DNA of 64,000 nucleotides from an uncultured Nitrospiraceae bacterium (GTDB lineage: Bacteria; Nitrospirota; UBA9217): positions 5,179 through 69,178 of the forward strand of contig CAYPOT010000009.1 of assembly GCA_964412455.1 (NCBI GenBank), written 5' to 3'. Shown here one piece after another: positions 5,375 to 36,241 of this stretch. A program made the translations under genes and the position numbers. Position 1 is the first letter of the stretch; each line of letters begins with the position of its first letter. The notes under the pieces are model-generated. The model did no database searches and was not told where the DNA came from. It saw only the letters and a list, made by a program, of their open reading frames with translations.

Positions 5375-5665
5375 ATGTCGACTATATCGATCAAAGGTGA
5401 TTCTTCGGAAACAGTCAGGTCACTCCTGACAAGTGCGTTGGACAGGGAAAAGCGCATTATTACTGACAGTTTGCGAACAACACGCGATAAGGTGAATGCC
5501 CTGGCAATAATGCTGTCGGTTGATGTTGAAAAGCTGATGCGGGGCGAGATCGAGCATGCTGAATCAAAGGACATGCAATTAATCGAACTCGAAGGGGAAG
5601 TCGAACTGCTCAGGCATCTTGAGACAGAGCTCAGGGAACTTGAAACCCTTGAAATATGCAGATAA
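5375..5665 (+). CDS. Small coiled-coil protein, putative antitoxin partner of the downstream DUF6516-like gene
   Basis: 96-aa ORF overlapping the next ORF by 10 nt, indicating translational coupling. Sits in an accessory-looking region of lower GC. Confidence 0.35.
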   Translation: MSTISIKGDSSETVRSLLTSALDREKRIITDSLRTTRDKVNALAIMLSVDVEKLMRGEIEHAESKDMQLIELEGEVELLRHLETELRELETLEICR

Positions 5666-6051
5666 AGGCATACCTTGACGGAATTCTCGATACACTTGCC
5701 GCGAATCCCCATGTGGAAGCCCAAAGTATTTCCTTTGAAGAACGCCCTCCCGATGCAGTCATCATAACAGGTATTGTCGCATTCATCGACGGCTCAAAAC
5801 TGCATATCAAAGAATTCCTGGTCCTGAAACCCGCTCATGCGGCTATCCTCAAGTATGGCTATCACTACGTGTCGAGTAAAGGTGAATTGATCTTCCGATA
5901 CGACAATGCGCTCGATCCCAAGGCGAGGGGATTGTCGACCTATCCGGAGCACAAACATGCTCCCGACGGATTAAAAGAAACCCGAAGACCATCGTGGCAG
6001 GATATTTTACGAGAAATTTCGAGCTCAATAGGCCAGTACATCAGGAAATAA
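5656..6051 (+). CDS. DUF6516 / TumE-family-like putative toxin
   Basis: 131 aa with ...IFRYDNALDPKARGLSTYPEHKHAPDG, resembling the RYDNAPHh..PHHKH signature I recall for DUF6516 (from memory, not searched). Confidence 0.4.
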   Translation: MQIKAYLDGILDTLAANPHVEAQSISFEERPPDAVIITGIVAFIDGSKLHIKEFLVLKPAHAAILKYGYHYVSSKGELIFRYDNALDPKARGLSTYPEHKHAPDGLKETRRPSWQDILREISSSIGQYIRK

Positions 6052-6069
6052 AACATTTTCGGAGACCCC

Positions 6070-6171
6070 ATGCGTTATTCCCGTTTGTTCATCCCCACCC
6101 TGAAAGAAGCCCCGACCGACGCCGAGGCGGTCTCGCACAAGCTCATGGTGCGCGCGGGCTTCGTGCGATAA
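6070..6171 (+). pseudogene. Displaced 5' fragment of proS (first 33 codons, then stop)
   Basis: atgcgttattcccgtttgttcatccccaccctgaaagaagccccgaccgacgccgaggcggtctcgcacaagctcatggtgcgcgcgggcttcgtgcg duplicates the start of intact proS at 13824. The GGAGA RBS is retained. Confidence 0.85.
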
Positions 6172-6210
6172 TCGGCGCCCTGCGGCAGCGTATGATGTAA
6201 ATAAATTTGA

Positions 6211-6239
6211 TTGACAATGGTTAGTATGAATATTATAAT
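6211..6239 (+). promoter_or_regulatory. Sigma70-like promoter TTGACA-N17-TATAAT upstream of the vapB-like gene
   Basis: Exact consensus hexamers at 6211-6216 and 6234-6239 with a 17-nt spacer, inside a short AT-rich block about 50 nt upstream of ATG 6289. Confidence 0.5.
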
Positions 6240-6288
6240 AAAGTATGATATATATTTTTGAATCGTATCTGATGGCAGGAGCGGGACA

Positions 6289-6534
6289 ATGAAAACGCTG
6301 ATGAGCGAGAGGGGTCAGGTGGTGATCCCGAAAAAGATCCGGGAGACCATTCACCTCCATAAAGGCGACGAACTGGAGATCGAGGTGCGCGATGAGACGA
6401 TCGTGCTGAAGCCGCTTCGCAGGTTCAAGGCCAAAAAATGGCAGGATTACGCCGGAATCGGTGAAGGCATCGTGGCTGCCCATCTCAAGGACAAGAAGAA
6501 GGAAAAAGCCGATGAAGATGCTTATTCTCGATAG
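6289..6534 (+). CDS. AbrB/MazE/SpoVT-domain antitoxin (VapB-like)
   Basis: MKTLMSERGQVVIPKKIRETIHLHKGDELEIEV is a swapped-hairpin AbrB-type DNA-binding motif. It overlaps the downstream PIN gene. Confidence 0.7.
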   Translation: MKTLMSERGQVVIPKKIRETIHLHKGDELEIEVRDETIVLKPLRRFKAKKWQDYAGIGEGIVAAHLKDKKKEKADEDAYSR

Positions 6535-6931
6535 CTACGCACTGCTCTGTCTTTTCGATAAAAAGCGCAGGACGGAGAAGGAAGCGATAATGTCCTATCT
6601 TGAGGATGCGGGCAAAGGCAAGGCGAAGCTTTATATCAGCAAGATCAACGAAGGTGAAGTGTTTTATAAGCTCTATAAGTATTTCGGCGCCGAGATCGCG
6701 ACCGGATTCAGGGCAGACCTCAAGCGGGGAATGTTCCCCCTGCATGTCGTGCCCGTGAATGATAAACGAATAGACGAAGCGTCCGTGATTAAGGCGAAAT
6801 ATCCGGTATCCTACGCCGACGCATTTTGCATAGAACTTGCCAGGGACATGAACCTGCCTGTGGTGACAGGTGATCCGGAATTCGAGGCTGTGAAGGACCT
6901 GATAAAGCTACAGCCGCTTGCGGAACAGTAG
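6512..6931 (+). CDS. PIN-domain toxin (VapC-like)
   Basis: MKMLILDSYALL... (conserved acidic D near the N-terminus) ...TGDPEF; ~140 aa, overlapping the antitoxin stop. Confidence 0.65.
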   Translation: MKMLILDSYALLCLFDKKRRTEKEAIMSYLEDAGKGKAKLYISKINEGEVFYKLYKYFGAEIATGFRADLKRGMFPLHVVPVNDKRIDEASVIKAKYPVSYADAFCIELARDMNLPVVTGDPEFEAVKDLIKLQPLAEQ

Positions 6932-6949
6932 CTCCTATGCGGACTTTCC

Positions 6950-7056
6950 GCACGGCGAGATCGTGAAGAAGTCCGATGAGAAGGAATTGGCCGATGTGCT
7001 GGTGAGGGAAGTGGAAGATTTAGTTCGGCAAAAAAATAAAAGGTAAGATCGTATTT
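6950..7056 (+). pseudogene. Displaced 3' fragment of ispG (last ~35 codons)
   Basis: cacggcgagatcgtgaagaagtccgatgagaaggaattggccgatgtgctggtgagggaagtggaag duplicates ispG 5150-5215. It encodes ...HGEIVKKSDEKELADVLVREVEDLVRQKNKR*. Confidence 0.8.
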
Positions 7057-7115
7057 CGTTTGGTGTCTCTTACATTGATAAAATGCACCAATGTTGTTTA
7101 AGAGAGATTTCAATT

Positions 7116-8435
7116 ATGAAAAAATATTATGATCCTTTATATGGTGAAATCAAGCTAGATGAGCTTGTCTTTAGTATTATTGAAAAATGTCCTGAAATAA
7201 AGCGGCTCAGATATGTCGGCCTCATGAATTTCAAATCTTTGAGCATGCTACCTTTAACAAGCATCACGAGGTTAGAACATACAATTGGTCTATCGTACCT
7301 AGCACAATTATTTGCCGACTCAAATTCTTTTTCAAAAACATCGAGGAACAATTTAATCGTCGCTTCACTTTTTCATGATGTTAACAGCGCGTCATTTGGA
7401 CATGCTATTGAATGGGCAGTGGATCGCTATACGCCTTATAACCACGAAAAGGAAACCGAGTGGTTAGCTGATAAAGAAAAGACCTCGTTTTTAAACAAAA
7501 AGCCAATATTTATTGAGCAATATGGTGTGACAAGATATGATTTGGAAAAAGAATATGGATTTAACTTGACTAAGGCTTATCAAATTATTAACGGAGTGGA
7601 TTCATTTACAATTAACAATAATGGAATAGATCTAGATAACGTTGACAACGTTTTTCGTATGGGTTTATACATGGGGCTGGAACCTTTCGAAAAGGGATGC
7701 CCTGTAAGGTTAGCCAAGAGTTTAAAGATAGTTGACGGGCGTGATAATTTTGTTATTAAAGAGGAAGCTATTGACTTAGTGATGACATGGTATCAATTAA
7801 GAGCGAATATTTACGGGAGATTTATTTACTCCGAAGAGTATATGGGTTATGAATATCTTTTATTTCAACTTATTGCTGAGTATGCAAAACACGTTGAGTT
7901 TGATAGCATAAGAAATCTTTTTAATTACACGGATGAAAATCTATTGTGGCATTTTTATGATAAGAAGAATTCGCTCCCGTCGGTAAGTAATATAGCGAGC
8001 ATGTTATTATTGCATGATATTCCTAAGACATACGCAATATTGCGCTCAGATGAATTTGACAAAAAAGAAAAACTAATTAAACCTGGAATTCTAGATGCTA
8101 TTGCCCAAAGTGTGAGTGAGTATTTGCACAATTCTAAAGAGGTTTCGAACACATCATCAGGGGAAATATTTTTGCATTTAACGACAGACGATAGAAAAAC
8201 CAACAGACAAATTGACTTTTATGTAGAGAAGAGTGGAGAAGTTGTTAAGCAATCTATAGGTTTCGATAAGAGATACATTGTTATTGGTGTATTGGGGAAA
8301 AAAAATCTGTCAGAAAAAGTAAAAACGCTAATCGCAGAAAAAACCATTGAAAAGCTTAGAAGCAGTAATTTGGGTAATTTCGATAATATTGAATTCGTCG
8401 AATCAAATGCGTTAAAGCAAAAAGTGCTATTCTAG
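7116..8435 (+). CDS. HD-domain phosphohydrolase, dGTPase/SAMHD1-like (dNTP triphosphohydrolase-like)
   Basis: DPLYGEIKL...IKRLRYVGLMNF...TRLEHTIGLSYLA...LIVASLFHDV, pattern of Dgt/SAMHD1 N-terminal HD region. First gene of the AT-rich operon. Alternative ATG at 7083. Confidence 0.55.
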   Translation: MKKYYDPLYGEIKLDELVFSIIEKCPEIKRLRYVGLMNFKSLSMLPLTSITRLEHTIGLSYLAQLFADSNSFSKTSRNNLIVASLFHDVNSASFGHAIEWAVDRYTPYNHEKETEWLADKEKTSFLNKKPIFIEQYGVTRYDLEKEYGFNLTKAYQIINGVDSFTINNNGIDLDNVDNVFRMGLYMGLEPFEKGCPVRLAKSLKIVDGRDNFVIKEEAIDLVMTWYQLRANIYGRFIYSEEYMGYEYLLFQLIAEYAKHVEFDSIRNLFNYTDENLLWHFYDKKNSLPSVSNIASMLLLHDIPKTYAILRSDEFDKKEKLIKPGILDAIAQSVSEYLHNSKEVSNTSSGEIFLHLTTDDRKTNRQIDFYVEKSGEVVKQSIGFDKRYIVIGVLGKKNLSEKVKTLIAEKTIEKLRSSNLGNFDNIEFVESNALKQKVLF

Positions 8436-8451
8436 CCGCACCTTTTAATTT

Positions 8452-9660
8452 ATGGAAAAGAAAAAAGATATTTCGCATTTTGATTTGCTTGATTGGAATT
8501 TTACTAGAGAAGATTCGAGACTCTACTTGCACAATTTCTGTTGGTATCCTTCAAGATTCATCCCAATAATCCCAGCCCACTTAATTCAAGCCCTAAGCAA
8601 GACCAATGAAACTGTGCTGGATCCGTTTTGCGGAATAGGGACTACGTTAGTCGAGGCTTTGAAGCAGAGGCGAAATGCAATTGGCGTTGATTTAAATCCA
8701 ATCGCATGCTTTGTCTCTAAAACTAAAGGAAAAATATTGACAGGTCATAAAGTAAACCTGTCTCTAATTGAAGGCTTGTTAGAAAACCTGGCGCCGTTGA
8801 GTGGTGATGATCTATTCACAAAAAAACGCACAGGTAGAGGTCATTATAATTTACGGGAGAAGTCAATCCCAAATTACGCTGTCAATGTGGAATGGTTTCA
8901 TCCCGAAACTTTAAAAATGCTTTCGCATATATACTATTCTGTCGAAGATCTTCCGAGAGGACTTACGAGGGATATATGCAAAATATTTTTTATTTCAATT
9001 CTCATGCAGTCCTCCGGGCACGATTTGAATAAGCCATACACTTATTATGCAGACAATGTGAAGCCTAAAAAAGAAAAATTGATTAAAGACGCCTACAAAC
9101 TATATGTGCAAAAATTGGATAAATTTTTATGTGAATATAAGCTCATAGAGTTACCCGAGAAAAACAGGCTGGATTTTGCCGTATACAACGAAGATGCGAG
9201 AGGGTTAGAAGGTTTGGTGGATAAAAAAGTTGACCTTATAGTTACTTCGCCTCCGTATTTAAATGTTACTGACTATACAACTGGCTTTAGGTTAGCTCAT
9301 CTGTGGTATAGCTTTCAAAAGGATATGCGTATTGAGGACATTAAAAGAAGAGAAATTGGTGCTCGATACAGGCGGAAGTCACGTAACAGTTTAAATGAAT
9401 ATGTCGGGGATATGCAGTCAGTCCTTTGCAAAATGGACAGCGTTTTAAAGACCAATGGGTATCTTTGCTTGATTCTTGGTGAATCACAAAAATACTCCAA
9501 GATTGTGAATAAGATAATAATGGACTTTATGTCGAACGAATTGCGGTTAGAATATATTGATTCTTTTAGTCGTGAGATAATAAAAAAATTCTTCATTCAT
9601 CCAAATGGTGGGGGTGTCAGTACAGAAGAAATTATTATTTACAGAAAAAAAAGAAAGTGA
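8452..9660 (+). CDS. DNA methyltransferase, N4/N6 family (motif I FxGxG then motif IV SPPY)
   Basis: VLDPFCGIGTTLVEA...IGVDLNP (AdoMet motifs I-III) and DLIVTSPPY (catalytic motif IV) about 200 aa later. SPPY is typical of N4-cytosine methyltransferases. Confidence 0.65.
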   Translation: MEKKKDISHFDLLDWNFTREDSRLYLHNFCWYPSRFIPIIPAHLIQALSKTNETVLDPFCGIGTTLVEALKQRRNAIGVDLNPIACFVSKTKGKILTGHKVNLSLIEGLLENLAPLSGDDLFTKKRTGRGHYNLREKSIPNYAVNVEWFHPETLKMLSHIYYSVEDLPRGLTRDICKIFFISILMQSSGHDLNKPYTYYADNVKPKKEKLIKDAYKLYVQKLDKFLCEYKLIELPEKNRLDFAVYNEDARGLEGLVDKKVDLIVTSPPYLNVTDYTTGFRLAHLWYSFQKDMRIEDIKRREIGARYRRKSRNSLNEYVGDMQSVLCKMDSVLKTNGYLCLILGESQKYSKIVNKIIMDFMSNELRLEYIDSFSREIIKKFFIHPNGGGVSTEEIIIYRKKRK

Positions 9661-10766
9661 GGTGTGTCTGCGCTATGGAAAATCACATCGTCATGATGCC
9701 TAATATGATAATACCATATGGCTACGAAATAGTGCCAATTATGGCTTATCCTGCTGGTTTTATCTACAGATTTAGATTTGATGAGGAATGGCTTTCAGAT
9801 AGGATAAAAGCCGATGTGTCTTCATTGTCAGCGAAAAAGGGTTATATCGTTTTCAGAGATCCAGAAAGCGCTACGTTTTACCCCATAAGGCATATCACAA
9901 TCAAGGTGGCGCAAAGAATAGGTAAATACTATTATTTTGAATATGAATTAAATGAAATATTTGACTTTGATTCTAACGAAACATGGAGGACAAAGCAAAT
10001 AACTCAATTTAATGACTCTTTTAAGAGTTTTCATGAATCAGAGTTTAAAGACAACATTCCTGGTAAAGATATGAAGCCCCTCGTATTTTTGACTAATTTT
10101 GCACCAACCATAAATAATGAACATGTCCAATTTACAAATCCATTGGAAAATGAGTTGGAGCGATGGGGAAATATAATTTCAATTATTAAAAATATAAAGT
10201 TTTATGAAAACGTAGAATTTATAAAAATCCTTGATATAGTGCCAATGAAAAAGCGAGACGAGGAAGTGCAAGTTAAAGAGAATTATTTATTTGTACAAGA
10301 AGACGGCGATTATAAGTTGAGGATATTTCAGCTTAAGCCTAAAGGATCGGTAGAAAGGATCGAACCGAAAGATATTGAAGTAAGATCAGACGACAAATAT
10401 ATTAGCGTCATAAGAAATAAACAACGCGCAGTAGGGAAGTATGATGTGCTAAGTTTCGTTTTCCGCGTGCATGCCGGCAGTGGAGGCCAGAGAAGTTATT
10501 TAGATGTTCTACATGCTCCCAAAACAGAAGCAGCCCAGTACATTGCGCCGACACTGTATCTTCCAGTAGCTATTCAAGGAAAAAGAAAGCTAATGGTTAT
10601 AAGAATTTTATTTGCCTTTGTCTTAGTCTCATTCTATCTTTTTCCTGAGGCTATAAGTTTCATATCTGATCACAGGATTGTGAAGGATTTTGCTATGGTC
10701 CTCTTCACTATTTCTGTGATAGATATTCTGAAAGAAATACGGGACCTGTTTAAGGCGAATAGATAA
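9657..10766 (+). CDS. Hypothetical protein with soluble N-domain and two C-terminal transmembrane helices
   Basis: No recognisable motif. C-terminus LMVIRILFAFVLVSFYLFPEAI...VKDFAMVLFTISVIDIL is strongly hydrophobic. Start overlaps the MTase stop (ATGA) and its stop overlaps the next start. Confidence 0.45.
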   Translation: MRCVCAMENHIVMMPNMIIPYGYEIVPIMAYPAGFIYRFRFDEEWLSDRIKADVSSLSAKKGYIVFRDPESATFYPIRHITIKVAQRIGKYYYFEYELNEIFDFDSNETWRTKQITQFNDSFKSFHESEFKDNIPGKDMKPLVFLTNFAPTINNEHVQFTNPLENELERWGNIISIIKNIKFYENVEFIKILDIVPMKKRDEEVQVKENYLFVQEDGDYKLRIFQLKPKGSVERIEPKDIEVRSDDKYISVIRNKQRAVGKYDVLSFVFRVHAGSGGQRSYLDVLHAPKTEAAQYIAPTLYLPVAIQGKRKLMVIRILFAFVLVSFYLFPEAISFISDHRIVKDFAMVLFTISVIDILKEIRDLFKANR

Positions 10767-12907
10767 TGGTTATCGTTGGCCTAAACCTTGGTTCAACAGA
10801 ATTTAATAAGAAATTACACGACGGAGGCATCTGTATTGTTGTTGATGGTAAAGTAAAATTCGCAGTGGCTGAAGAGCGTATTTCGCGCAGAAAGCGCTCA
10901 GGCGGATTCAGGGAATCACTGGACTATGCTCTTTCTTGTTTGAATTTAGATAGGAGTAATATCGATCTTGTTGTTTATTCAAGCTGTTGTGAGAGTATTA
11001 ACAATAGCATTAACATCGCAGAATTACAGAATATAAAATCAATTCCCTGTGACCATCATCTATCTCACGCTTTAAGTGTGTATCTGACATCTCCTTATGA
11101 AAAGGCACTTATTGCCGTTTTAGACGCAGGAGGAAATCTTCTCGGTAATGACAACCATAGTGACTGGTGGCTTCATTCCCGAGAGCAGCAATCATACTAT
11201 GTCGCAGAAGGGAACAATGTCACGCTAATTGATAGAGATTTTATCTTACCTGAAGCAGCAGGCATAGGGGAAATATATCGTGCCTTTACATATTATCTTG
11301 GGTGGGAATCTTCTCGATTTGCAGGCAAGACCATGGCGCTTGCCGCATATGGAGATCCTGGTGCATTTAAAGGTAACAACATATTTGACTTGGACATAAA
11401 TGGGAACATACGCTCACATATAAAAAATAATCCGATAGAGCCCTTGTCTATGGTTGAGCAGTTACTCGATAGATATGGGAGAAAAAATGTGCCTCCTCGG
11501 AAAGATGGTCAACCGATTCTACAAGTGCATAGTGATCTTGCTCGCTGGATACAAAATGAAACGGAGGACATAGTAACCGCAAAACTTAACTATTTAATGC
11601 GTAAGACAGGCATTTCTAATCTTTGTTTGGCAGGAGGAGTTGCCTATAATTGCTCGATGGTTGGAAAGATAATGAATAATACTATGGCAAATAATGTTTT
11701 TCTCCAGCCGGCATCGGGTGATCAAGGTCAATGTCTTGGCAATGCCATGTTTGGATACACTCAAATTAGAAATGCTTGGATAAGAGTTAATCCATTCAAT
11801 CCATATCTAGGATGCGGTATTGAAATAAACCATGATACAATTCGAGGCGCGTTAAAGAGTAATAATCAGGTTACAATTAATGCCCCGCGTGATATAGCAG
11901 TAACAACTGCAAAATTACTCTCGCAAGGAGAAATAGTGGCGTGGTTCCAAGATCGGAGTGAATTCGGTCCTCGTGCCTTGGGCAATCGAAGTATTCTTGC
12001 AAACCCCTGTCTTTCGAAGAGTAAGGAGAAATTGAATTCAATAAAGGGTCGTGAAGACTTTATGCCTTTTGCTCCGACTGTTCTATACGAAAGTGCAAAA
12101 GACTATTTTGTGATTTCCGATGAATGTCCTTTTATGACTGCAGCAGTTAAGGTGCGCCCAAACGTCAGAGAAACAATACCGGCAGCTGTCCATGTGGACG
12201 GAACATCTAGAGTCCAAACATTGAGAAAAGAAAATAATCCGCTATTTTACGATTTGATACATGAATTCTACAAGTTGACAAAAGTGCCATTAATTATTAA
12301 TACTTCATTCAATGCAGCTGGTGAGCCTATTGTTGAAACACTTAATAATGCAATAGACACTTTTATGAAATTAGACATAAGATTTATGGTAGCTGGTTCG
12401 TTCCTTCTGGAAAAGCCATTGGTTAGAACATCTATGCCTAGTGTCAAAGATGCAGGTCGGTTGTTGGATATTGTATTTGGGGCGGATCTGATCGTCAACG
12501 AGACGGAATTAAGTGCGCTGCTTAGTGAGCGCTTTCCGGGAATTAAATCCTTTCCTAGAGATAAATTTTTGCTCAATGAAAAATTTATTAATTGGTTAAA
12601 AAACGGCAGAAAAACGACAACCATTAGGTATAAGAAAGTGGGTATAGATTTCCCAGTGGCGACATGTTTGCCGCTAATTCCGACAAAAGATTTTTCAAAA
12701 AATCGAGGTGAAGCGCCAGTTGGCTTTTTGAAAATAAGAAAATATATAATAAAAAAATATCGGGATCTTAATGAAACAGATGCTCGTAATGATGGATTTA
12801 AAACTCTAACGGAGCTAAGAAGTGTTCTTTTCGATATCTATGGTGCTATACAAGAAGATGACTATGTTTCTATATACTATGTTCAAATAAAAAATAATCC
12901 AAGTTAA
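10766..12907 (+). CDS. NodU/CmcH-type carbamoyltransferase (Kae1/YgjD-like N-domain + carbamoyltransferase C-domain) with ~170-aa C-terminal extension, possibly ASCH/PUA-like
   Basis: MVIVGLNLGST...DGGICIVVDGKVKFAVAEERISRRKR...CDHHLSHALSVY (Carbam_trans_N) and RSILANPCLSKSKEKLNSIKGREDFMPFAPTV (Carbam_trans_C). Tail INWLKNGRKTTTIRYKKV is a weak ASCH-like motif. Confidence 0.6.
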   Translation: MVIVGLNLGSTEFNKKLHDGGICIVVDGKVKFAVAEERISRRKRSGGFRESLDYALSCLNLDRSNIDLVVYSSCCESINNSINIAELQNIKSIPCDHHLSHALSVYLTSPYEKALIAVLDAGGNLLGNDNHSDWWLHSREQQSYYVAEGNNVTLIDRDFILPEAAGIGEIYRAFTYYLGWESSRFAGKTMALAAYGDPGAFKGNNIFDLDINGNIRSHIKNNPIEPLSMVEQLLDRYGRKNVPPRKDGQPILQVHSDLARWIQNETEDIVTAKLNYLMRKTGISNLCLAGGVAYNCSMVGKIMNNTMANNVFLQPASGDQGQCLGNAMFGYTQIRNAWIRVNPFNPYLGCGIEINHDTIRGALKSNNQVTINAPRDIAVTTAKLLSQGEIVAWFQDRSEFGPRALGNRSILANPCLSKSKEKLNSIKGREDFMPFAPTVLYESAKDYFVISDECPFMTAAVKVRPNVRETIPAAVHVDGTSRVQTLRKENNPLFYDLIHEFYKLTKVPLIINTSFNAAGEPIVETLNNAIDTFMKLDIRFMVAGSFLLEKPLVRTSMPSVKDAGRLLDIVFGADLIVNETELSALLSERFPGIKSFPRDKFLLNEKFINWLKNGRKTTTIRYKKVGIDFPVATCLPLIPTKDFSKNRGEAPVGFLKIRKYIIKKYRDLNETDARNDGFKTLTELRSVLFDIYGAIQEDDYVSIYYVQIKNNPS

Positions 12908-13823: not shown

Positions 13824-15518
13824 ATGCGCTACTCGAAACTGTTCATTCCTACATTAAAAGAGGCGCCGACCGACGCCGAGGCGGTCTCGCACAAGCTCAT
13901 GGTGCGCGCCGGCTTCGTGCGCCAGCTCGCGGCGGGGCTCTATATCTACCTTCCGCTGGGCATCCGGGTGATGGAGAAGATCAACCGCATTATCCGCGAG
14001 GAAATGAACGCCATCGGCGGCCAGGAAGTGACCATGCCGGTGCTGAATCCCGCCGAGGTGTGGCAGCAGACCGGGCGGTGGGATGCCATCGGCGGCGAGA
14101 TGTTCCGTCTCAAGGACCGCGGCGGCAGGGACATGTGCCTGGCCATGACCCACGAGGAGACCATGACCTGGCTCGCGGCGCACGATATCCGTTCCTACCG
14201 GGAACTGCCCCAGATCTGGTACCAGGTGCAGACGAAATTACGGGACGAAGCGCGGCCCAAGAGCGGCGTACTCCGGACGCGCGAGTTCACCATGAAGGAC
14301 TCCTACAGCTTCGACGCCGATGAGGCCGGGCTCGACCGGTCCTATCAACTTCATCTCGAGGCCTACAAGAAGATCTACTCCCGCTGCGGAATTCGATTTC
14401 ACGTGGTCCAGAGCGACACGGGCATGATGGGCGGCAGCATGGCGCACGAGTACATGGCGCCTTCTCCGGCGGGCGAGGACGACGTGGCGCTCTGCGATGG
14501 CTGCGGGTACGCGGCGAACACGGAGCTCGCGCTGTCCGTGCCGAAGGCGGCTGCATCATCGAACGACAGTTACGAGGAGATCGCTACGCCGGAACGGCGA
14601 ACCATCGACGAGGTGACCCGCTTCCTGAAGGTCACGCCGGACCGTTTGCTCAAGTCCATCCTCGTCACGACCGACCAGGGACCGCTGCTGGCGCTGGTGC
14701 GCGGCGACCAGACCCTGCATGAGAAGAAGCTGGCCAAGCTTATCGGACCCCATCGGCCCGCGCAGAAGGACGAGGTGAAGGCCGCTCTCGGCGTGCCTGT
14801 CGGATTCATCGGCCCCATGGGCCACAAGATCCGGAAGATCGCTGACCTGGTGCTGAAACAGGGGACCCACATCGCCGGCGCGAACAAGGAAGGCTTCCAT
14901 GTGAAGGGTGTCTCCGCGGACAAGCATTTCAGCGACGCCGAGTTCGCGGACATCCACACCGCGGCGGAAGGCGACGCCTGCGCCCAGTGCGGCAAGCCGC
15001 TGCGCATCGAGCGGGTCATCGAGATCGGGAACATCTTCAAGCTGGGCACCAAGTACTCCGTCCCGCTCAAGGCGAACTACCTTGACGAACAGGGGAATGA
15101 GAAGCCCATCATCATGGGGAGCTACGGCATCGGCCCGGCGCGCATCGCCGCCGCGGCCATCGAGCAGGGGAACGACGAGAACGGCATCATCTGGCCGGCG
15201 GCGATCGCGCCCTACCAGGTCCTGATCGTGCCGGTGAACGTGAAAGACCAGCGCTCCATGGACGTGGCCGAGGAGATGCACACGGCCCTTGAGGAAAAAG
15301 GGTTCGAGGCGCTCATGGACGACCGCGACGAACGGGCCGGCGTCAAGTTCAAGGACGCGGACCTTATCGGCATTCCGTACCGGGTCGTCATCGGCGAGAA
15401 GAACCTGAAGGAAGACCTGGTGGAGCTTAAGGAGCGGAAGACCGGGGTCGTGGTCAAGGTGAAGGTCGCCGACGCGGTGGCGGCGATCGTGAAGAAGATC
15501 GTGATGGAGAACGCGTAA
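13824..15518 (+). CDS. proS: Proline--tRNA ligase
   Basis: [32 protein letters not shown]-terminus and class II aaRS motifs. ATG 13824 preferred over TTG 13803. The first ~45 nt are notably AT-richer than the displaced copy at 6070. Confidence 0.9.
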   Translation: MRYSKLFIPTLKEAPTDAEAVSHKLMVRAGFVRQLAAGLYIYLPLGIRVMEKINRIIREEMNAIGGQEVTMPVLNPAEVWQQTGRWDAIGGEMFRLKDRGGRDMCLAMTHEETMTWLAAHDIRSYRELPQIWYQVQTKLRDEARPKSGVLRTREFTMKDSYSFDADEAGLDRSYQLHLEAYKKIYSRCGIRFHVVQSDTGMMGGSMAHEYMAPSPAGEDDVALCDGCGYAANTELALSVPKAAASSNDSYEEIATPERRTIDEVTRFLKVTPDRLLKSILVTTDQGPLLALVRGDQTLHEKKLAKLIGPHRPAQKDEVKAALGVPVGFIGPMGHKIRKIADLVLKQGTHIAGANKEGFHVKGVSADKHFSDAEFADIHTAAEGDACAQCGKPLRIERVIEIGNIFKLGTKYSVPLKANYLDEQGNEKPIIMGSYGIGPARIAAAAIEQGNDENGIIWPAAIAPYQVLIVPVNVKDQRSMDVAEEMHTALEEKGFEALMDDRDERAGVKFKDADLIGIPYRVVIGEKNLKEDLVELKERKTGVVVKVKVADAVAAIVKKIVMENA

Positions 15519-15529
15519 TTGCAGGGGAA

Positions 15530-15576
15530 ACCCTATGTGGTTGCCCTGATCCGGGCGGCCACGCAGGGCCGCCCCT
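15530..15576. repeat. REP-A repeat, copy 2 (variant GCAGGGGAAACC...)
   Basis: aaccctatgtggttgccctgatccgggcggccacgcagggccgcccctac immediately after the proS stop. Confidence 0.8.
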
Positions 15577-15607
15577 ACATTAGATCAGGCGAGAGGGGCA
15601 AGGGGAA

Positions 15608-15871
15608 ATGCTAGAGCAGGACATCGACACAATCAAGGCGATCATCGCAAAAAAGGCGGAACGATTCAATGCCCGGGCGGGCGACGTGATCTTTGCGGGC
15701 GTCGAGGGCGGCACCGTCAAGATCGCTCCGTCGGGCTTCTGCTGGCGCTGACACGTGACCCGGATAGCCCTGGTCGAGGGCTTACAAAAGGAGCTCGCCG
15801 CGACGTTCCCCTGGGTGGAACAGGTTATCGTGGTACGGCCGGAGCAGGCGGAAACGGGAAAAAAGACTTGA
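15608..15871 (+). CDS. Nfu/NifU-like Fe-S scaffold domain protein with in-frame TGA (candidate selenocysteine, CxxU) at 15749-15751
   Basis: ...GDVIFAGVEGGTVKIAPSGFCWR-TGA-HVTRIALVEGLQKELAATFPWVEQVIVV. The TGA sits where the second Cys of the Nfu CxxC motif is expected, and the frame stays open 39 codons to a TGA at 15869. Good RBS AGGGGAAATG. Confidence 0.45.
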
Positions 15872-15920
15872 ATTCCCGCTGTGAAGTGCCTATAATTTGA
15901 ACCATGGAGGGCGCATACCA

Positions 15921-16151
15921 ATGGCCGATGATTCTTTTACGCTGACACTTACTCCTCAGCAGTGCGTCGAGATAAAGAAACAGATCGGTTTCGACCTCAC
16001 CGAGATCCATATTACCAAGCGGTCGCTGAACAAGCTCAGGGTCTTCCGGCTCCGGCTGAGCGAAGAGCAGCAGCAGACCATCGCCGATGCCTGGGGCCAG
16101 AAGGTGAAAGAGCTGACGGTGACGCGCTCGGTGGCGACGCGGATCATGTGA
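15921..16151 (+). CDS. Small hypothetical protein
   Basis: GGAGG RBS 7 nt upstream of ATG 15921; 76 aa, no recognisable motif. Confidence 0.4.
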   Translation: MADDSFTLTLTPQQCVEIKKQIGFDLTEIHITKRSLNKLRVFRLRLSEEQQQTIADAWGQKVKELTVTRSVATRIM

Positions 16152-16243
16152 TACCGGTCATTTGCGGGGAGGCCCGCAATTCTCTCAAATCAGTTAACCC
16201 GGTTCATTCAGCAACCATGCCATGAAAGAAGGAGGTGAACCCC

Positions 16244-16432
16244 TTGAAAAAACTGTTTGCTGTCATGCTTTCATTGCTTATCGTAGCGGCATTCGTCTTT
16301 ATCGGCTGCGAGAAGAAACCCGAACCGCCGAAGCCCGCACCGGCCCCGGCAGTAGCACCGCCGCCTCCGGCACCAGCACCGGCCCCGGCTCCGGCCCCGG
16401 CACCCACGCCTGCGAAGCCTGCAAAGAAGTAA
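16244..16432 (+). CDS. Small lipoprotein with Ala-Pro repeat tail
   Basis: LKKLFAVMLSLLIVAAFVFIGC (lipobox FIGC) then (PA)n repeat. TTG 16244 or GTG 16235 start after GGAGG. Confidence 0.5.
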   Translation: MKKLFAVMLSLLIVAAFVFIGCEKKPEPPKPAPAPAVAPPPPAPAPAPAPAPAPTPAKPAKK

Positions 16433-16467
16433 TGTACCGCGGGATCTATCAGCTTGTGACCCTATTG

Positions 16468-16494
16468 TGGCCCCCGTCAGGGGGCCTTTTCTTT
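16468..16494 (+). terminator. Rho-independent terminator
   Basis: ggcccccgtcagggggcc hairpin followed by a T-run. Confidence 0.6.
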
Positions 16495-16653
16495 GGAAAG
16501 TACGCCATCATTTTAAAAAGCATTTGGACACGGAAGCATTAGGATTAACGCCTGATAAGGGCGGATAAAAAAACAGGAGACTCTCGCTGACAAAAGTTAA
16601 AGTACCTTCCCCTGAAATATCCGTTTTTATCCGGTTATTATCAGATTTGAGCC

Positions 16654-18498
16654 GTGACAAAAGTCGTTAGTAGGATCATCAAGGAAGCAAGAGAAAACCC
16701 TATGACCAGGCTTACGACGGACATGCTCGGCGAGATTCTCCTGAAGGCGGGGAAGCTTACGCCTGAGCAGGCGAAAGAGATCAGGATCAAACAGGACCAT
16801 CAGCGGATGAAGATCCTGAAGTCACGGGGCGAGACGATCCACCGCGGCAGGGTCCACCTCGAGGACGAAGTGTCAGCGATCGAGGTCGCCGCTTCGCTGG
16901 AGTTCGAACAGGCCGGTGCGCCGGGAAAGGTCCTTACCGAGGACCTCATTACCGAGGCCGTCGCCCTGCACGTCGGCATGCCCTTTAGAAAGATCGATCC
17001 CTTGAAGCTCAATCCGGAGATCGTCACCCAGATCCTGCCGCGGGCCTTTGCCCGCAGGAACGGCGCAGTGCCGATCGGTCGGGGTGAGGACAAGCTCACG
17101 GTCGCCGTATCGGACCCCTTCAACCTCGAGGTCGTGGAAAACATCGAGCGGATGGGATTCAAGGTTTCCCGGGTCCTCTCCCCCCGGACGGACATCCTGA
17201 AGATCATTACCGAGTTCTACGGGTTCCGCTCATCGGTGAGCGCCGCGGCCAAGGAATTGGGCTCCGAGGTGGATCTCGGGAACCTCGAACAGTTCGTCAA
17301 GATGAAGGCCGTGTCCGAGATCGAGGCCACGGACAAGCACATCGTGACCGCCGTGGAGTTCCTGTTCCGCTACGCCTTCGACCAGCGGGCCAGCGATATC
17401 CACATCGAGCCCAAGCGCGACGTTTCCGAGATCCGGTTTCGGATCGACGGCATGCTCCATGTGATCAACAAGGTCCCCAAACAGGTCCATCCCGCCTTCG
17501 TGTCCCGCATCAAAATGCTCTCCCGCATGGATATCGCCGAGAAGCGCCGGCCCCAGGATGGCCGTATCAAGACCGAATACAAGGGGCGTGAGGTCGAGTT
17601 TCGCGTGTCCACGATGCCGGTCGCGTTCGGTGAGAAAGTGGTGCTCAGGATCTTCGACCCCGATATCATCCTGCAGGACCTGGAGGAACTGGGTTTCTCG
17701 AAGCGGGAGTATGAGCTCTTTCGTTCCTTCATCGCCCGGCCTCATGGCATTGTTCTTGTCACGGGCCCCACGGGAAGCGGCAAGACCACCACGCTCTATT
17801 CCGCGCTCAAGACCGTCTCGACTCCCGAAGTGAACGTGATCACTGTCGAGGACCCCATCGAAATGGTCTACGACCGTTTTAATCAGGTGGCCGTCCAGCC
17901 GCAGATCGGCGTCACGTTCGGCACGACGCTTCGCACGATCCTCCGCCAGGACCCGGACATCATCATGGTGGGCGAGGTACGGGACCTTGATACCGCGGAG
18001 AACGCCGTCCAGGCGTCCCTGACCGGTCATCTGGTCTTTTCGACCCTGCACACCAACGACGCGCCGAGCTCCATCACGCGTCTCCTGGACCTGGGACTCC
18101 CCGCCTTCCTTATCGCGTCGACCGTGGTGGGGATCATGGCCCAGCGGCTGCTGCGGAAAGTCTGCAAGAACTGCGAACGGACGTACCAGCTTCTGCCCGA
18201 GGAGGCCGCGGCCGTCGGCCTTTCGTCCGATCTGAACCAGAAGATCATGGTAAAGTACGGCGAGGGCTGCGGTCAGTGCCGGGGCACCGGTTATCTCGGA
18301 AGGACCGGGATCTTTGAGGTCATGGAAGTGAACGAGAAGATCCGGCCGCTCATCACCGAGAAGGCGGACTCCGAGTTCATCAAGCGCACGGCCATCGGCG
18401 ACGGAATGGTGACGCTCCGCGAAGGCGCGGTGCGGAAGATGCTGAGCGGTGAGACCACCTTTGACGAGGTCATCCGCGTAACGGGGGAAAAAATCTAG
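16654..18498 (+). CDS. GspE/PilB-family secretion ATPase (orphan, with N-terminal GspE_N-type domains)
   Basis: LGEILLKAGKLTPEQAKEI (T2SSE_N), Walker A GPTGSGKTTTLY, tetracysteine CKNCER...CGQCRG. GTG 16654 or ATG 16702 start. Confidence 0.8.
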   Translation: MTKVVSRIIKEARENPMTRLTTDMLGEILLKAGKLTPEQAKEIRIKQDHQRMKILKSRGETIHRGRVHLEDEVSAIEVAASLEFEQAGAPGKVLTEDLITEAVALHVGMPFRKIDPLKLNPEIVTQILPRAFARRNGAVPIGRGEDKLTVAVSDPFNLEVVENIERMGFKVSRVLSPRTDILKIITEFYGFRSSVSAAAKELGSEVDLGNLEQFVKMKAVSEIEATDKHIVTAVEFLFRYAFDQRASDIHIEPKRDVSEIRFRIDGMLHVINKVPKQVHPAFVSRIKMLSRMDIAEKRRPQDGRIKTEYKGREVEFRVSTMPVAFGEKVVLRIFDPDIILQDLEELGFSKREYELFRSFIARPHGIVLVTGPTGSGKTTTLYSALKTVSTPEVNVITVEDPIEMVYDRFNQVAVQPQIGVTFGTTLRTILRQDPDIIMVGEVRDLDTAENAVQASLTGHLVFSTLHTNDAPSSITRLLDLGLPAFLIASTVVGIMAQRLLRKVCKNCERTYQLLPEEAAAVGLSSDLNQKIMVKYGEGCGQCRGTGYLGRTGIFEVMEVNEKIRPLITEKADSEFIKRTAIGDGMVTLREGAVRKMLSGETTFDEVIRVTGEKI

Positions 18499-23483: not shown

Positions 23484-24272
23484 ATGAGTGTGTCCAGTAA
23501 AATAGGGCTCCGGATCAAAGAGCTGCGGGAAAAGGCCGATATGAGCCAGGAGTCATTGGCGCAGAAGATGAAGATGTCCCGCCCTGCCATAACGCAGATC
23601 GAGAAAGGTACGAGAAAGGTCTCTGCCGAAGAACTGGTGAACTTTTCGCAAATGTTCCACGTACCTGTTGATGGCATTTTGAATCAGGGAAAAGAGCCGG
23701 AAGTCTTTCTTCAGGAGGAAAGGGCTGCAAAGGCGGCCAAGCCGCAGATGCGTATCAGCGTTCCGCAGAAGAACCTTCAAAAGTTCAAGGAGGTGCTGTT
23801 GTACATCCTGAACAAGGTGGGCGCAAAGGAGAACATCGGCGAGACCGTCGTCTACAAGCTGCTCTACTTCATAGATTTCGATTTCTACGAGAAATATGAG
23901 GACCAGCTGGTCGGCGCCACGTACATCAAGAACAAATATGGTCCTACACCGGTCGAGTTTGCTAAGATCGTCGAGAAGATGATCAAGGACGGTGAGATCG
24001 AGAAGGTCAAGAGCGAATACTTCAAGCTCCAGCAGACCAAGTACCTGCCCCGCCGGAAGCCGGACCTCACGAAGCTCCAGGCGACCGAGATCGAGGTGAT
24101 CGACGACGTGCTGAACCGGCTCTCGGAAATGAACGCCAACCAGATCAGCGCGTACTCGCACAGCGATGTTCCCTGGATGTCGACGAAGGACGGCGAAACC
24201 ATCGATTACGAATCGGTCTTTTACCGCACGCCGCCCTATTCCGTGCGGGCCTACACGGATGAGAACGGATGA
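23484..24272 (+). CDS. XRE-family HTH fused to Panacea (DUF4065) domain antitoxin
   Basis: N-terminal HTH_XRE (IKELREKADMSQESLAQKMKMSRPAITQIEKG). C-terminal KLLYFIDFDFYEKYEDQLVGATYIKNKYGPTPVEF matches the Panacea/SocA-like signature. Confidence 0.65.
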   Translation: MSVSSKIGLRIKELREKADMSQESLAQKMKMSRPAITQIEKGTRKVSAEELVNFSQMFHVPVDGILNQGKEPEVFLQEERAAKAAKPQMRISVPQKNLQKFKEVLLYILNKVGAKENIGETVVYKLLYFIDFDFYEKYEDQLVGATYIKNKYGPTPVEFAKIVEKMIKDGEIEKVKSEYFKLQQTKYLPRRKPDLTKLQATEIEVIDDVLNRLSEMNANQISAYSHSDVPWMSTKDGETIDYESVFYRTPPYSVRAYTDENG

Positions 24273-24784
24273 GCCGATCGTTCTACAGTGAATTCGACGG
24301 GACGCTGTTTGAAAAGATCACTCATGTCCCGGAGTTCGAGAAAGATCTAAAAAAGCTCTCCAAGCGATTCTCTTCGCTCGAAAAGGACCTGCAGACCTTC
24401 ATCAAGGTCGCGATGCATCTATTTCACAAGCAGAAGATCGACAGCAATGCGATCTTTCATATATCCGATCTCGGGATCAAGTCTCCGAATATATACAAGG
24501 CCAAGAAGTTTGCGTGCCGGGCGTTGAAGGGCAAAGGAGCGCAATCGGGAATCAGGGTTATTTATGCATATCATGAGGAAGCGGATTGGGTAGAGTTTGT
24601 CGAGATTTATTATAAGGGCGATAAGGAGAGCGAGGGCAGGGAGAGGATAGCTCGAATATATGGTAAACCTCGACAGGTAGGCGGACCGCTTGCGAGCCGC
24701 AAGGCCTTGAGAGAATCGCTCCGCGCCAAAGGAAAAGCGCCGTCCGAAGTCGTGATCGCATCGAGAAAACAGGAGAGGGATTAG
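24269..24784 (+). CDS. RelE/ParE-superfamily-like toxin partner (4-bp ATGA overlap with antitoxin)
   Basis: ...ACRALKGKGAQSGIRVIYAYHEEADWVEFVEIYYKGDKE resembles the RelE/HigB core (sGiRviY...v.fl.i..K.d); basic tail. Confidence 0.45.
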   Translation: MSRSFYSEFDGTLFEKITHVPEFEKDLKKLSKRFSSLEKDLQTFIKVAMHLFHKQKIDSNAIFHISDLGIKSPNIYKAKKFACRALKGKGAQSGIRVIYAYHEEADWVEFVEIYYKGDKESEGRERIARIYGKPRQVGGPLASRKALRESLRAKGKAPSEVVIASRKQERD

Positions 24785-24839
24785 ATGCCCTCCCTATACG
24801 TTGACACGGCGTCGCGCAGAAATTATGCTGCCAACACCC

Positions 24840-24874
24840 TTGACAATGGCTTCAAGGCTGTTGTATTATAAATA
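24840..24874 (+). promoter_or_regulatory. Promoter (TTGACA-N18-TATTAT) overlapping a perfect palindrome TTGTATTATAAATACAA, likely operator
   Basis: TTGACA 24840-45; the 17-bp palindrome at 24858-24874 lies immediately upstream of the HTH gene at 24893. Confidence 0.45.
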
Positions 24875-24892
24875 CAACAGTAAGTAAGGGAG

Positions 24893-25276
24893 GTGCTCAC
24901 CATGTCAACCAAAGCGACTTTCGGGGAATTCTTCAAACAAAAAAGGATCGAGCAGAAAAAGACCTTGCGGCAATTCTGTGCGGAGAACAAGCTGGACCCC
25001 GGCAATATCAGCAAGCTCGAACGGGGGCTCATGCAACCGCCGCAGGGGAAAGACAAACTCGAAGAGTATGCCAGGTATCTTACAATCAAAAAAGGAACCG
25101 ACGACTGGTATAAGTTCTTCGATCTGGCCGCTATTGAGGCCGGCCGGATACCTGAGGAGCTGCTGAGCGATGCTAAGATGGCCGCAAATCTGCCGATCCT
25201 GTTCCGGACCTTGCGGGGAAAGAAAATATCGGAAAAGAAACTCGACGAACTGGTGGAGATGATTCGCAAGGCATAG
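24893..25276 (+). CDS. Small XRE-like HTH DNA-binding protein
   Basis: LRQFCAENKLDPGNISKLERG helix-turn-helix; 127 aa. Confidence 0.5.
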   Translation: MLTMSTKATFGEFFKQKRIEQKKTLRQFCAENKLDPGNISKLERGLMQPPQGKDKLEEYARYLTIKKGTDDWYKFFDLAAIEAGRIPEELLSDAKMAANLPILFRTLRGKKISEKKLDELVEMIRKA

Positions 25277-25487
25277 CCTATCCATTTCTCAGTCTGTTTA
25301 ATTAGGTTTTCGAAAGAATGCGTATATCCAAGTAATGACATGGCAAACCAAGCGAAAAAGACAGAGCACTCAGGATCGAAGAAAGGTTGCGGCTCATACT
25401 GGGGACGAAAGAAGGACGCAAAGACAGAAAGCAACCGCAAGCGCCGCGAAGACGGCAAGAGATTGATTCGAGAGACAGCGAGAGTAT

Positions 25488-25751
25488 ATGAACCGAAGAA
25501 ATAAATCCAGACCACAACGCACCGCTGATGCTCTTTGCCAGAAACACAAGGTCAGCGTCACGGGGAAATCCCATGACGTTGTACTCCATGCCGATACAGA
25601 AGACGGCGGCTTCTGGGTCGAGTGCCCCTCGCTTCCCGGCTGCGACTCGCAGGGCGACGCGGTAGAGGATGCGCTAAAGATGGTGAAGGACGCCATCAAG
25701 GGACATCTGGAGGTCGCGGCAGAGCGGAAGAAGAAGAGGGCGGCCGCGTAA
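25488..25751 (+). CDS. HicB-like (UPF0150) antitoxin-domain protein
   Basis: VVLHADTEDGGFWVECPSLPGCDSQGDAVEDALKMVKDAIKGHLE matches the HicB N-domain consensus. Its stop directly abuts the DUF3800 start (TAAATG). Confidence 0.6.
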   Translation: MNRRNKSRPQRTADALCQKHKVSVTGKSHDVVLHADTEDGGFWVECPSLPGCDSQGDAVEDALKMVKDAIKGHLEVAAERKKKRAAA

Positions 25752-26387
25752 ATGCCCTATATTTTCATGGACGAGTCAGGCGACCTTGGATTTGATTTCA
25801 CCAAGAAAGGGACTTCGCAATATTTTCTGATTACGTTCCTGTTCAGCAACAATAAGAGGGACATTGACAAATGCGTCAAAAAGGTCCATGCGGGCTTGCG
25901 CAAACGGTATAAGAGAGTTGGCGTACTGCATGCATATAAGGATGAACCGGTAACCAAAAAGCGATTACTTTCGCTACTTGCGGAGAAGGATTGCACTATC
26001 ATGGCAATCGTGCTGAACAAGAGAAAGGTCTACACAAACCTTCAGGATGAGAAGCCGGTCCTTTACAATTACGTGACCAATATCTTGCTCGACAGGATAT
26101 TCTCAAAAAAACTGCTGCGCGGCAACGAACCAATCGAGATCATCGCCTCGCGTAAGGACACGAGCAGGTTCCTGAATTTGAACTTCAAATCCTACCTGCA
26201 GTCGCAATTGGCCAAGAATCACAATGTGACGGTAAGCGTTACGATCAAGACCCCGGCGGAAGAGAAAGCACTTCAGGCGGTGGATTTCGTGAGCTGGGCG
26301 ATATTCAGGAAGTATGAGTCGAAGGACGAAGAGTACTACAGGATCATCAAAGGGCTGATCGTCGAAGAGAAACCGTTGTTCCCCTAG
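25752..26387 (+). CDS. DUF3800-domain protein
   Basis: MPYIFMDESGDLGFDF... is the characteristic DUF3800 N-terminus (iy.DESG). Confidence 0.6.
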   Translation: MPYIFMDESGDLGFDFTKKGTSQYFLITFLFSNNKRDIDKCVKKVHAGLRKRYKRVGVLHAYKDEPVTKKRLLSLLAEKDCTIMAIVLNKRKVYTNLQDEKPVLYNYVTNILLDRIFSKKLLRGNEPIEIIASRKDTSRFLNLNFKSYLQSQLAKNHNVTVSVTIKTPAEEKALQAVDFVSWAIFRKYESKDEEYYRIIKGLIVEEKPLFP

Positions 26388-26484
26388 AAACAACAAAGCC
26401 CCGTTCGCTAGTTTCGAGGCGCCCTGCGGTACCCCACGAACGAGGACTTACTTGTTGCTATTATGATAATGCAGGGGCGGAAGT

Positions 26485-26692
26485 ATGTCAAGGGTTTTGA
26501 GCAGTTTAATTCTCGGTCCGAGTGCAGCATAAAGGCTGGCGCGGCAGTCATGTGAAGCTGATGAAACCGGGTAATCCCGTCATTTTGTCGATCCCCCTGC
26601 ACAAGGGGAAACCGGTCAAGAAAGGCTTGCTGGTTGCTCAGGTCAAGAAGGCGGGGATGACGGTGGAGGAGTTCTTAAAATTGTACAAATAA
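26485..26692 (+). pseudogene. Degenerate HicA-like toxin (frameshifted, with internal stops)
   Basis: Frame 1 MSRVLSSLILGPSAA* (stop 26530). Frame 2 continues ...GWRGSHVKLMKPGNPVILSIPLHKGKPVKKGLLVAQVKKAGMTVEEFLKLYK*, the HicA GSH..KL...P.H.GK...GtL..I.KqAG signature, with TGA/TAA just upstream in that frame. Confidence 0.55.
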
Positions 26693-26734
26693 GCAATATG
26701 GTATCCAGTAAGATGTTGAAAATGAGTAGGCAAT

Positions 26735-27682: not shown

Positions 27683-27722
27683 ATCTACCCGAGGTCAACG
27701 TCCTTCAAAGAGCACATTAACC

Positions 27723-30569: not shown

Positions 30570-30607
30570 TAGTAATATCAATAGACGAAAGGTTAAACAG
30601 ATACGAA

Positions 30608-34049: not shown

Positions 34050-34148
34050 TGCTGCCTCTCGGTTGTACGTATATCGTCAGATCTATTTACTGAATATCAT
34101 GCATTGCGGATTTCGGATTCCGGAATGAAGACCGTTCATACCGTTGTC

Positions 34149-36240: not shown

Positions 36241-36241
36241 A

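Follow-up and report, generated by a model that had tools for sequence, protein, structure and literature searches.

Is the in-frame UGA at position 15749 of this stretch of DNA the end of a small gene, or is it a codon that is read as an amino acid? The question concerns a short gene on the forward strand of contig CAYPOT010000009.1 from an uncultured Nitrospiraceae bacterium, whose product resembles Nfu, the C-terminal domain of NifU; the whole stretch of 64,000 nucleotides (nt) that was analysed is referred to here as the window. An earlier annotation, made from the letters of the window alone (the sequence-only reading), had described an ATG at 15608, 47 codons, a TGA, 39 further codons and a second TGA, all of which were confirmed. 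Our analysis indicates that this is very probably a genuine selenoprotein gene, in which UGA 15749 is recoded to selenocysteine (Sec) by SelB acting on a hairpin at 15766–15782, giving an 87-residue Nfu-like protein with the motif Cys45-Trp-Arg-Sec48. The retention of the TGA among relatives, the selection acting on the sequence downstream of it, and a conserved hairpin with a conserved GGU loop support the proposal of a CxxU Nfu-like selenoprotein that the sequence-only reading had put forward.

A single reading frame with one interruption

Positions 15608–15871 of the forward strand form a single frame of 87 codons, the sole interruption of which is the TGA at 15749–15751; the 39 sense codons that follow in the same frame encode HVTRIALVEGLQKELAATFPWVEQVIVVRPEQAETGKKT. 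The segment is most likely one gene for an 87-residue, single-domain protein of the Nfu type (NifU C-terminal domain) carrying the motif C-W-R-U, and its parts are arranged as follows.

15593–15598, forward strand: purine-rich GAGGGG that resembles a Shine-Dalgarno sequence, 9 nt ahead of the start codon at 15608, read from the sequence only
15608–15748, forward strand: first coding part, codons 1–47 (MLEQDID...IAPSGFCWR), corresponding to helix 1 and strands 1 and 2 of the Nfu fold
15740–15742, forward strand: TGC codon of Cys45, the first cysteine of the motif, read from the sequence
15749–15751, forward strand: in-frame UGA, proposed to encode Sec as residue 48, where the Nfu CxxC has its second cysteine
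15752–15868, forward strand: second coding part, codons 49–87 (HVTRIALVEGLQKELAATFPWVEQVIVV...), corresponding to helix 2 and strand 3 of the Nfu fold
15766–15782, forward strand: candidate bacterial Sec insertion sequence (SECIS) gccctggtcgagggc, with the stem at 15766–15771/15777–15782 and the loop at 15772–15776
15869–15871, forward strand: true stop TGA, without a SECIS-like hairpin downstream

Relationship to the Nfu family

When a cysteine is written at the TGA, the read-through product scores 32.2 bits against the Pfam NifU model PF01106, for which the gathering cut-off is 27 bits, and the match covers residues 17–74 and spans the TGA; the 47-residue fragment alone reaches 14.2 bits. 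A sequence search over all PDB chains matched five Nfu domains, namely those of mouse HIRIP5 (1VEH), the human NFU1 C-terminal domain (2M5O), the S. epidermidis NifU-like protein (1XHJ), the rice NifU-like protein (2JNV) and Arabidopsis CnfU (2Z51), with a phmmer E value of 7e-5 for both 1VEH and 2M5O. In these alignments GFCWR-[TGA]-HVTRIALVEGLQ pairs with GSCTSCPSSIITLKNGIQ, which places the TGA on the second cysteine of the cluster-binding CxxC. Three of the four Nfu alignments inspected are gap-free and the fourth has a single gap far from the motif, with the surroundings of the CxxC gap-free throughout. The position assigned to the TGA from the letters alone is thus borne out by alignment to solved Nfu domains.

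The fold was examined on P0001, a full-length homologue 64% identical to the window protein, for which it stands in here. The AlphaFold model of P0001, with a predicted local distance difference test (pLDDT) score of 76, comprises a helix at residues 10–34, strands at 42–48 and 51–56, the motif loop, a helix at 64–81 and a strand at 87–90, and its best Foldseek matches in the PDB are 2M5O, 2JNV and 2Z51. Canonical Nfu proteins (PF01106; 2M5O, 1XHJ, 2Z51) resemble the window protein in domain, length and the order helix-strand-strand-helix-strand, and their motif likewise lies in the loop before helix 2. The canonical motif is C-(G/T)-(S/G)-C-P-S-S, whereas here it is C-W-R-U-H, with a UGA codon in place of the second cysteine. 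Among the members compared, the first cysteine is invariant and the second position is UGA, so that a CxxC as such is absent; judged by its motif, the protein appears to be a CxxU variant and not a canonical PF01106 member. The family is also limited, as sampled, to one Nitrospirota clade, unlike canonical Nfu, and canonical Nfu proteins were too distant to reach significance in a whole-database phmmer search with P0001.

Conservation of the UGA among relatives

In 30 of the 31 related loci collected, the corresponding codon is likewise TGA, also in members with only about 49% identity in the N-terminal part, and the TGA is invariant in all 18 distinct aligned sequences. The 31 loci include five genome loci, all titled Nitrospirota, Nitrospirae or Nitrospiraceae metagenome-assembled genomes, together with 18 metagenomic loci, three more distant loci reached via truncated proteins, two frame-disrupted loci and one low-coverage contig. 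A TGC or TGT codon was found at the UGA site in none of the relatives, across about 60 sequences. After the TGA, relatives continue with the pattern H/Q-(V/I/A/M)-T-R-(I/V/M)-A-L-V-(E/Q/R)-G-(L/I)-(Q/E)...F-P-W-V..V-(I/V)-V.

The same boundary is visible in predicted proteins. Among 5.8 billion of them, 48 of the 49 homologous clusters (66–100% identity) stop exactly at ...CWR, whatever the N-terminal extension. An exhaustive phmmer search with P0001 against 1.84 billion representatives yielded 12 matches, two of which are repetitive junk; eight end in ...CWR or ...CWQ at a TGA taken as a stop by the gene caller, P0053 matches as far as ...CWR and continues into unrelated residues, and one is a 38-residue C-terminal piece called as a separate open reading frame (ORF). 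Comparison with homologues, as the sequence-only reading had suggested, therefore finds the cysteine of distant Nfu proteins opposite the TGA and the TGA itself kept in relatives, and the combination of a sense codon at this site with unconserved sequence downstream did not occur.

Coding selection downstream of the UGA

Across the 18 distinct sequences, the ratio of nonsynonymous to synonymous divergence (dN/dS) is 0.20 over the 42 codons before the TGA and 0.17 over the 27 codons after it, with a mean synonymous divergence (dS) of about 0.85. Pairwise differences at the first, second and third codon positions are 0.19, 0.18 and 0.41 before the TGA and 0.19, 0.09 and 0.35 after it; the downstream frame is open in relatives, and the changes are concentrated at third positions. 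Residues that are invariant after the TGA are encoded by several synonymous codons, with two used for Thr, four for Arg, four and five at two Leu positions, two for Gln, two for Phe, three for Pro and three to four for Val. Given the level of synonymous divergence, there has been ample chance for the TGA or the downstream frame to be lost. The retention of the TGA, combined with purifying selection downstream, indicates that the sequence is translated and excludes a simple nonsense pseudogene.

A conserved hairpin after the UGA

The small hairpin that had been noticed downstream of the TGA is present. Its stem, AGCCCU/AGGGCU, has 6 base pairs (bp) and begins 14 nt after the UGA, and its loop is the 5-nt GGUCG; the description of bSECISearch reportedly gives a spacing of 16–37 nt to the loop. 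The RNAalifold consensus of 18 sequences is exactly this 6-bp hairpin (alignment columns 18–23 and 29–34), in which 96.3% of the cells form standard pairs. One pair changes from A-U to G-C in two sequences and to G-U in one and is broken in four, and the closing pair is U-A or U-G. The loop begins with GGU in all 18 aligned sequences, 17 of which have GGUC and one GGUG; its recorded forms are GGUCG, GGUCC, GGUUC and once GGUGC. Where codon +9 encodes Arg or Gln, a stem of 7 bp closing a GUC loop can form. The hairpin is also retained in the three more distant loci, L028–L030.

Shuffle controls for covariation were not decisive, and the conservation of synonymous sites was used instead. The codons of the 5' arm and loop are GCC in 18 of 18 sequences, CTG in 18 of 18 and GTC in 17 of 18, and in the 3' arm Gly is encoded by GGC in 16 sequences and by GGU, which keeps a G-U pair, in two. 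The third positions of this Ala-Leu-Val-Gly set are almost invariant, to a degree reached by only 41 of 23,751 four-codon sets of invariant residues, and the mean third-position entropy of the other invariant residues is 0.93 bit. A scan of the window for other hairpins with a GGU loop after a TGA in an open frame left the Nfu-like site as the only one in a real coding frame.

The closest point of comparison is the SECIS of E. coli fdhF, whose sequence has exact matches (100% identity) in 5,419 genomes of E. coli. Its GGUC apical loop lies at nt 22–25 from the U of the UGA, compared with 24–27 here, a shift of 2 nt; its hairpin likewise lies in the coding sequence just past the UGA, and in both cases the UGA is followed by C. 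The window hairpin differs in its stem, which has only 6–7 bp and lacks both a bulged U and a long lower part.

Proposed decoding and the evidence against it

The recoding mechanism proposed here is modelled on the established bacterial pathway, from which we infer both that the inserted residue is Sec and that SelB binds the candidate hairpin. UGA 15749 would not act as a terminator; the hairpin at 15766–15782, with GGU exposed in its loop, would recruit SelB·GTP·Sec-tRNA(Sec) to the ribosome, Sec would be inserted at residue 48, and translation would continue to the TGA at 15869. The literature supports Sec use at the level of the phylum, not for the source genome itself: complete selA/B/C/D sets occur in Thermodesulfovibrio, among the genomes bearing selC* (PMC5389517), and a selB-selC overlap has been described in a groundwater Nitrospirae lineage (PMC8124441).

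Several observations weigh against this proposal, beginning with the hairpin. Its free energy is -10 kcal/mol (z = -1.0), 30 of 200 shuffled sequences fold equally well, and longer folding contexts are likewise no different from shuffles; the window sequence is also able to form an alternative, non-conserved hairpin. Covariation is weak, as three of the six pairs never vary and a single pair shows a double change, in two sequences. An Rfam scan of 15000–16600 at E values up to 10 returned neither a SECIS nor any other credible RNA family. Bacterial SECIS models in Rfam are gene-specific, which makes the lack of a match unsurprising. The suggestion of a bacterial SECIS therefore holds in part: its conserved position, GGU loop and frozen synonymous sites speak for it, and energy, covariation and Rfam lend it no support, so that the case for the hairpin comes from conservation and not from energy.

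The comparative data and the genome context raise further difficulties. No close full-length orthologue with cysteine was found by phmmer among the 1.84 billion representatives, and the pairing of Sec with Cys, as read from the alignments, holds only against distant canonical Nfu, at superfamily distance. The relatives constitute one fairly narrow Nitrospirota clade in which synteny is kept and ProS is 79–93% identical; consequently, the independent observations are fewer than the sequences. Frame disruptions occur in four loci. L005 (3001–3230) has a 1-nt deletion before the motif and L031 (2834–3100) a 7-nt deletion that removes part of the 5' arm of the hairpin; both belong to a CWQ-TGA sub-lineage, and their disruptions may be assembly errors or local gene decay. 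The frameshifts in L020 and L023 both come from one low-quality sample. The sole homologue with a sense codon at the site is P0001 itself, encoded by L027 (677–985), in which FWWRG-PVS replaces FCWRU-HVT. The L027 contig has 0.47x coverage, four clustered substitutions and an intact hairpin; on these grounds P0001 was treated as unreliable and not as a genuine Gly variant, and its motif differences are probably sequencing errors. Finally, selA, selB, selD and a tRNA-Sec gene were absent from the 64-kb window and the flanks examined. The window contains no tRNA genes, and SelA, SelB and SelD were absent from the Pfam annotation of 30 window ORFs of at least 185 residues and of the annotated 5.6–25.7 kb.

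Alternative readings of the UGA

A nonsense mutation in a decaying nfu gene was the alternative raised in the sequence-only reading, and it would account for the additional disruptions in L005, L031, L020 and L023 as well as for the Sec machinery not being seen in the window. It would also require the TGA to have been kept despite a mean dS of about 0.85 and N-terminal identities down to about 49%, with downstream selection undiminished; two of the disrupted copies trace to the same low-quality sample, and the single-base deletion in another may be an assembly error. With a dN/dS of 0.17 after the TGA, decay is effectively refuted, and we find it barely credible. Termination at the UGA, yielding a 47-residue peptide, is a separate reading, in which the downstream sequence would be either a 38-residue peptide initiated on its own (a split Nfu) or conserved for reasons other than coding. 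Gene callers do report 47-residue products and, once, a 38-residue product starting VTRIALV..., and the window has a GTG two codons after the TGA. Furthermore, DNA beyond the true stop is conserved too, owing to the promoter-like site described below, so conservation alone is no proof of coding. However, seven of the 18 distinct sequences have ATC, ATA, ATT, GCG or GTA in place of the GTG, and neither another start codon nor a ribosome-binding site is kept after the TGA, leaving re-initiation unsupported. Downstream of the TGA, substitutions follow the pattern of coding sequence in the upstream frame, at the dN/dS just given, and the stop would fall exactly on the catalytic cysteine position and cut a single small domain in the middle. 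Termination is accordingly a highly improbable account, if a slightly better one than decay.

A further alternative is decoding of the UGA as cysteine. A selC* tRNA(Cys) with a UCA anticodon, acting with a SelB-type factor, could read the codon as Cys, always or under selenium scarcity, and the product would be an ordinary CxxC Nfu. Such tRNAs have been reported in anaerobes, including Thermodesulfovibrio and Nitrospirae-like contigs, and in E. coli one of them inserted Cys at a Sec UGA (PMC5389517). Nevertheless, all the selC* genomes also had a full Sec apparatus (PMC5389517), and neither selC* nor any other tRNA gene lies in the window. A TGC or TGT codon would be the simpler solution, yet none of the roughly 60 relatives has adopted one, and for this reason we hold Cys decoding to be improbable. 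A general use of TGA as a sense codon in this genome was rejected: elsewhere in the window TGA serves as a regular stop codon, and many Pfam-supported genes end in it, among them the CDP-diglyceride synthase-type gene and those for the hydrogenase large subunit, NamZ and the secretin.

Possible function of the proposed Cys45/Sec48 pair

In canonical Nfu dimers, the two CxxC motifs bind a bridging [4Fe-4S] cluster. The proposed pair lies in the same loop before helix 2 as the Nfu cluster site, and by homology it would most likely ligate or hand over an Fe-S cluster, with a selenolate replacing a thiolate. A role as Fe-S carrier or scaffold is nonetheless uncertain, and one feature of the motif tells against it: C-W-R-U followed by His is unlike the CxxC-P-S-S of cluster-binding Nfu with its small residues.

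These bulky Trp and Arg residues between the pair, with the His that follows Sec, make a redox function a serious alternative. Provided that the gene encodes a selenoprotein, Cys45-x-x-Sec48 might form a redox-active selenenylsulfide on an Nfu fold that holds no Fe-S cluster, in the form of a thiol/selenol oxidoreductase, a persulfide or perselenide reductase, or a sulfur/selenium relay. Among catalogued prokaryotic selenoproteins, the majority of which are presumed to be redox proteins, CxxU and UxxC are the most frequent motifs (PMC13188914), and the surroundings of the pair here are an invariant W, then R (Q in a few members), with H or Q after the pair, where canonical Nfu has small residues and P-S-S. 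On the other side, the whole domain and the position of the motif match the cluster-binding Nfu domain, and the HesB-like/IscA-type selenoprotein, in which Sec occupies a cluster-ligand position by the reading of its UxGP motif, offers a precedent for a carrier (PMC13188914). We consider a redox-active selenenylsulfide a real possibility, short of even odds by itself and nearly as likely as a cluster carrier.

A more specific role can be suggested tentatively, and we regard it as rather doubtful. Sec48 could be the selenolate ligand of an inter-protomer cluster, with selenium tuning uptake and release, or the protein could be a relay that moves selenium, toward SelD or as Fe-Se species. The family is apparently Sec-only, without Cys orthologues, which would imply that cysteine cannot serve the function. 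From its gene content, the source organism is plausibly an anaerobe.

Gene neighbourhood and the remainder of the window

In all loci, the order of genes is gcpE, proS, the Nfu-like gene, a 76-residue ORF, a Pro/Ala-rich lipoprotein, usually an MshEN/T2SSE ATPase (absent from at least L004) and CNNM. This context is without a functional clue for the Nfu-like protein. The features next to the gene in the window are listed below.

15868–15896, forward strand: near-consensus promoter-like site TTGAAT-17-TATAAT, with the stop codon of the Nfu-like gene inside its -35 hexamer; it would serve the next gene
15921–16151, forward strand: 76-residue ORF without a family match, always found after the Nfu-like gene and better conserved (72–96% identity)
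16235–16432, forward strand: small ORF resembling a lipoprotein gene, with a long tract rich in Pro and Ala, PKPAPAPAVAPPPPAPAPAPAPAPAPTPAKPAKK; the position of the ORF is kept in all relatives
16654–18498, forward strand: separate MshEN/T2SSE ATPase gene, two genes downstream of the Nfu-like gene

A 26-nt GC-rich palindrome, GGGCGGCCACGCAGGGCCGCCCCTAC, occurs four times on the forward strand (1317–1342, 15553–15578, 34188–34213 and 52619–52644), although chance alone would give none. One of the four falls in the gap between proS and the Nfu-like gene, and the palindrome is also found upstream of the gene in some relatives; it looks like a repeat of the repetitive extragenic palindromic (REP) type.

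Elsewhere in the window, a [NiFe]-hydrogenase operon of four genes (32775–37402, reverse strand) encodes a Fer4_22 protein, a 301-residue product without a family, a 280-residue product that we take, from its sequence, for the probable hydrogenase small subunit, and the large subunit; the operon resembles those of the NAD(P)-coupled group 3 enzymes. The large subunit was considered as a NiFeSe selenoprotein and rejected, since it ends in DPCISCSVH-TGA and is of the Cys type. A type II secretion-like cluster (46594–57099, forward strand) comprises GspC, a secretin, a T2SSE ATPase, T2SSF, pseudopilin J and a GspL/PilN-like protein. Two further regions look like defence or mobile islands: 5375–12907, with TumE, MazE/PIN, an HD protein, an N6/N4 methyltransferase and a carbamoyltransferase with ASCH, and 23484–31408, with HTH-SocA/Panacea, a HicB-like protein, DUF3800, an Mrr/ResIII helicase and DUF5677.

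Place among known selenoproteins

Sec usually sits at redox-active sites or coordinates Mo/W or Ni. A 2026 inventory lists 119 prokaryotic selenoprotein families, and Table 1 of that inventory has no PF01106-based entry and none named NifU or Nfu (PMC13188914). No such family appears in the main text and supplements of deep-Sep or in the main text of BSepDB, and full-text searches of the literature for a link between NifU/Nfu and selenoproteins found nothing relevant. A scan against NCBIfam release 20, which holds many selenoprotein models, returned a sub-threshold match to NifU_proper and no selenoprotein model. Within the literature and databases searched, we judge the CxxU Nfu to be a genuine selenoprotein family not yet catalogued. 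Its decoding would follow the standard mechanism, and its domain is already known; what is new is an Nfu with CxxU.

Two groups of catalogued selenoproteins invite comparison. The HesB-like (IscA/A-type carrier) selenoprotein TIGR01911 is the catalogued case, among Fe-S assembly proteins, of a carrier-type protein in which Sec apparently replaces a cluster-ligand cysteine, and it is listed as experimentally verified (PMC13188914). It would belong to the same general pathway as the window protein, but its fold and family are unrelated, its motif is UxGP and not CxxU, and it occurs in archaea and other bacteria; an A-type carrier domain of this kind gave no Pfam or NCBIfam match in the window protein at E values up to 10. 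The small CxxU redox selenoproteins (SelW-like, AhpD-like, GrdA, DUF1858 and the CC/Se-motif family; PMC13188914) likewise place a CxxU within about 90 residues. Their NCBIfam and Pfam models have no match here, and the window protein has an Nfu fold, not a thioredoxin-like or AhpD-like one.

The finding also identifies a systematic annotation error. Public gene calls for the family are 47-residue proteins that are unnamed or labelled 'hypothetical', and calls of this length make the family invisible to protein-level searches. In addition, a short SECIS with an fdhF-like GGUC loop would provide a data point for models of bacterial SECIS elements. If the proposal is true, a Sec-containing Nfu would represent a second class of Fe-S carrier in the selenoproteome, after the HesB-like precedent, and would offer, in only 87 residues, a compact system in which selenolate and thiolate could be compared in the ligation or transfer of Fe-S clusters. 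It would also extend the known selenoproteome of uncultured anaerobic Nitrospirota.

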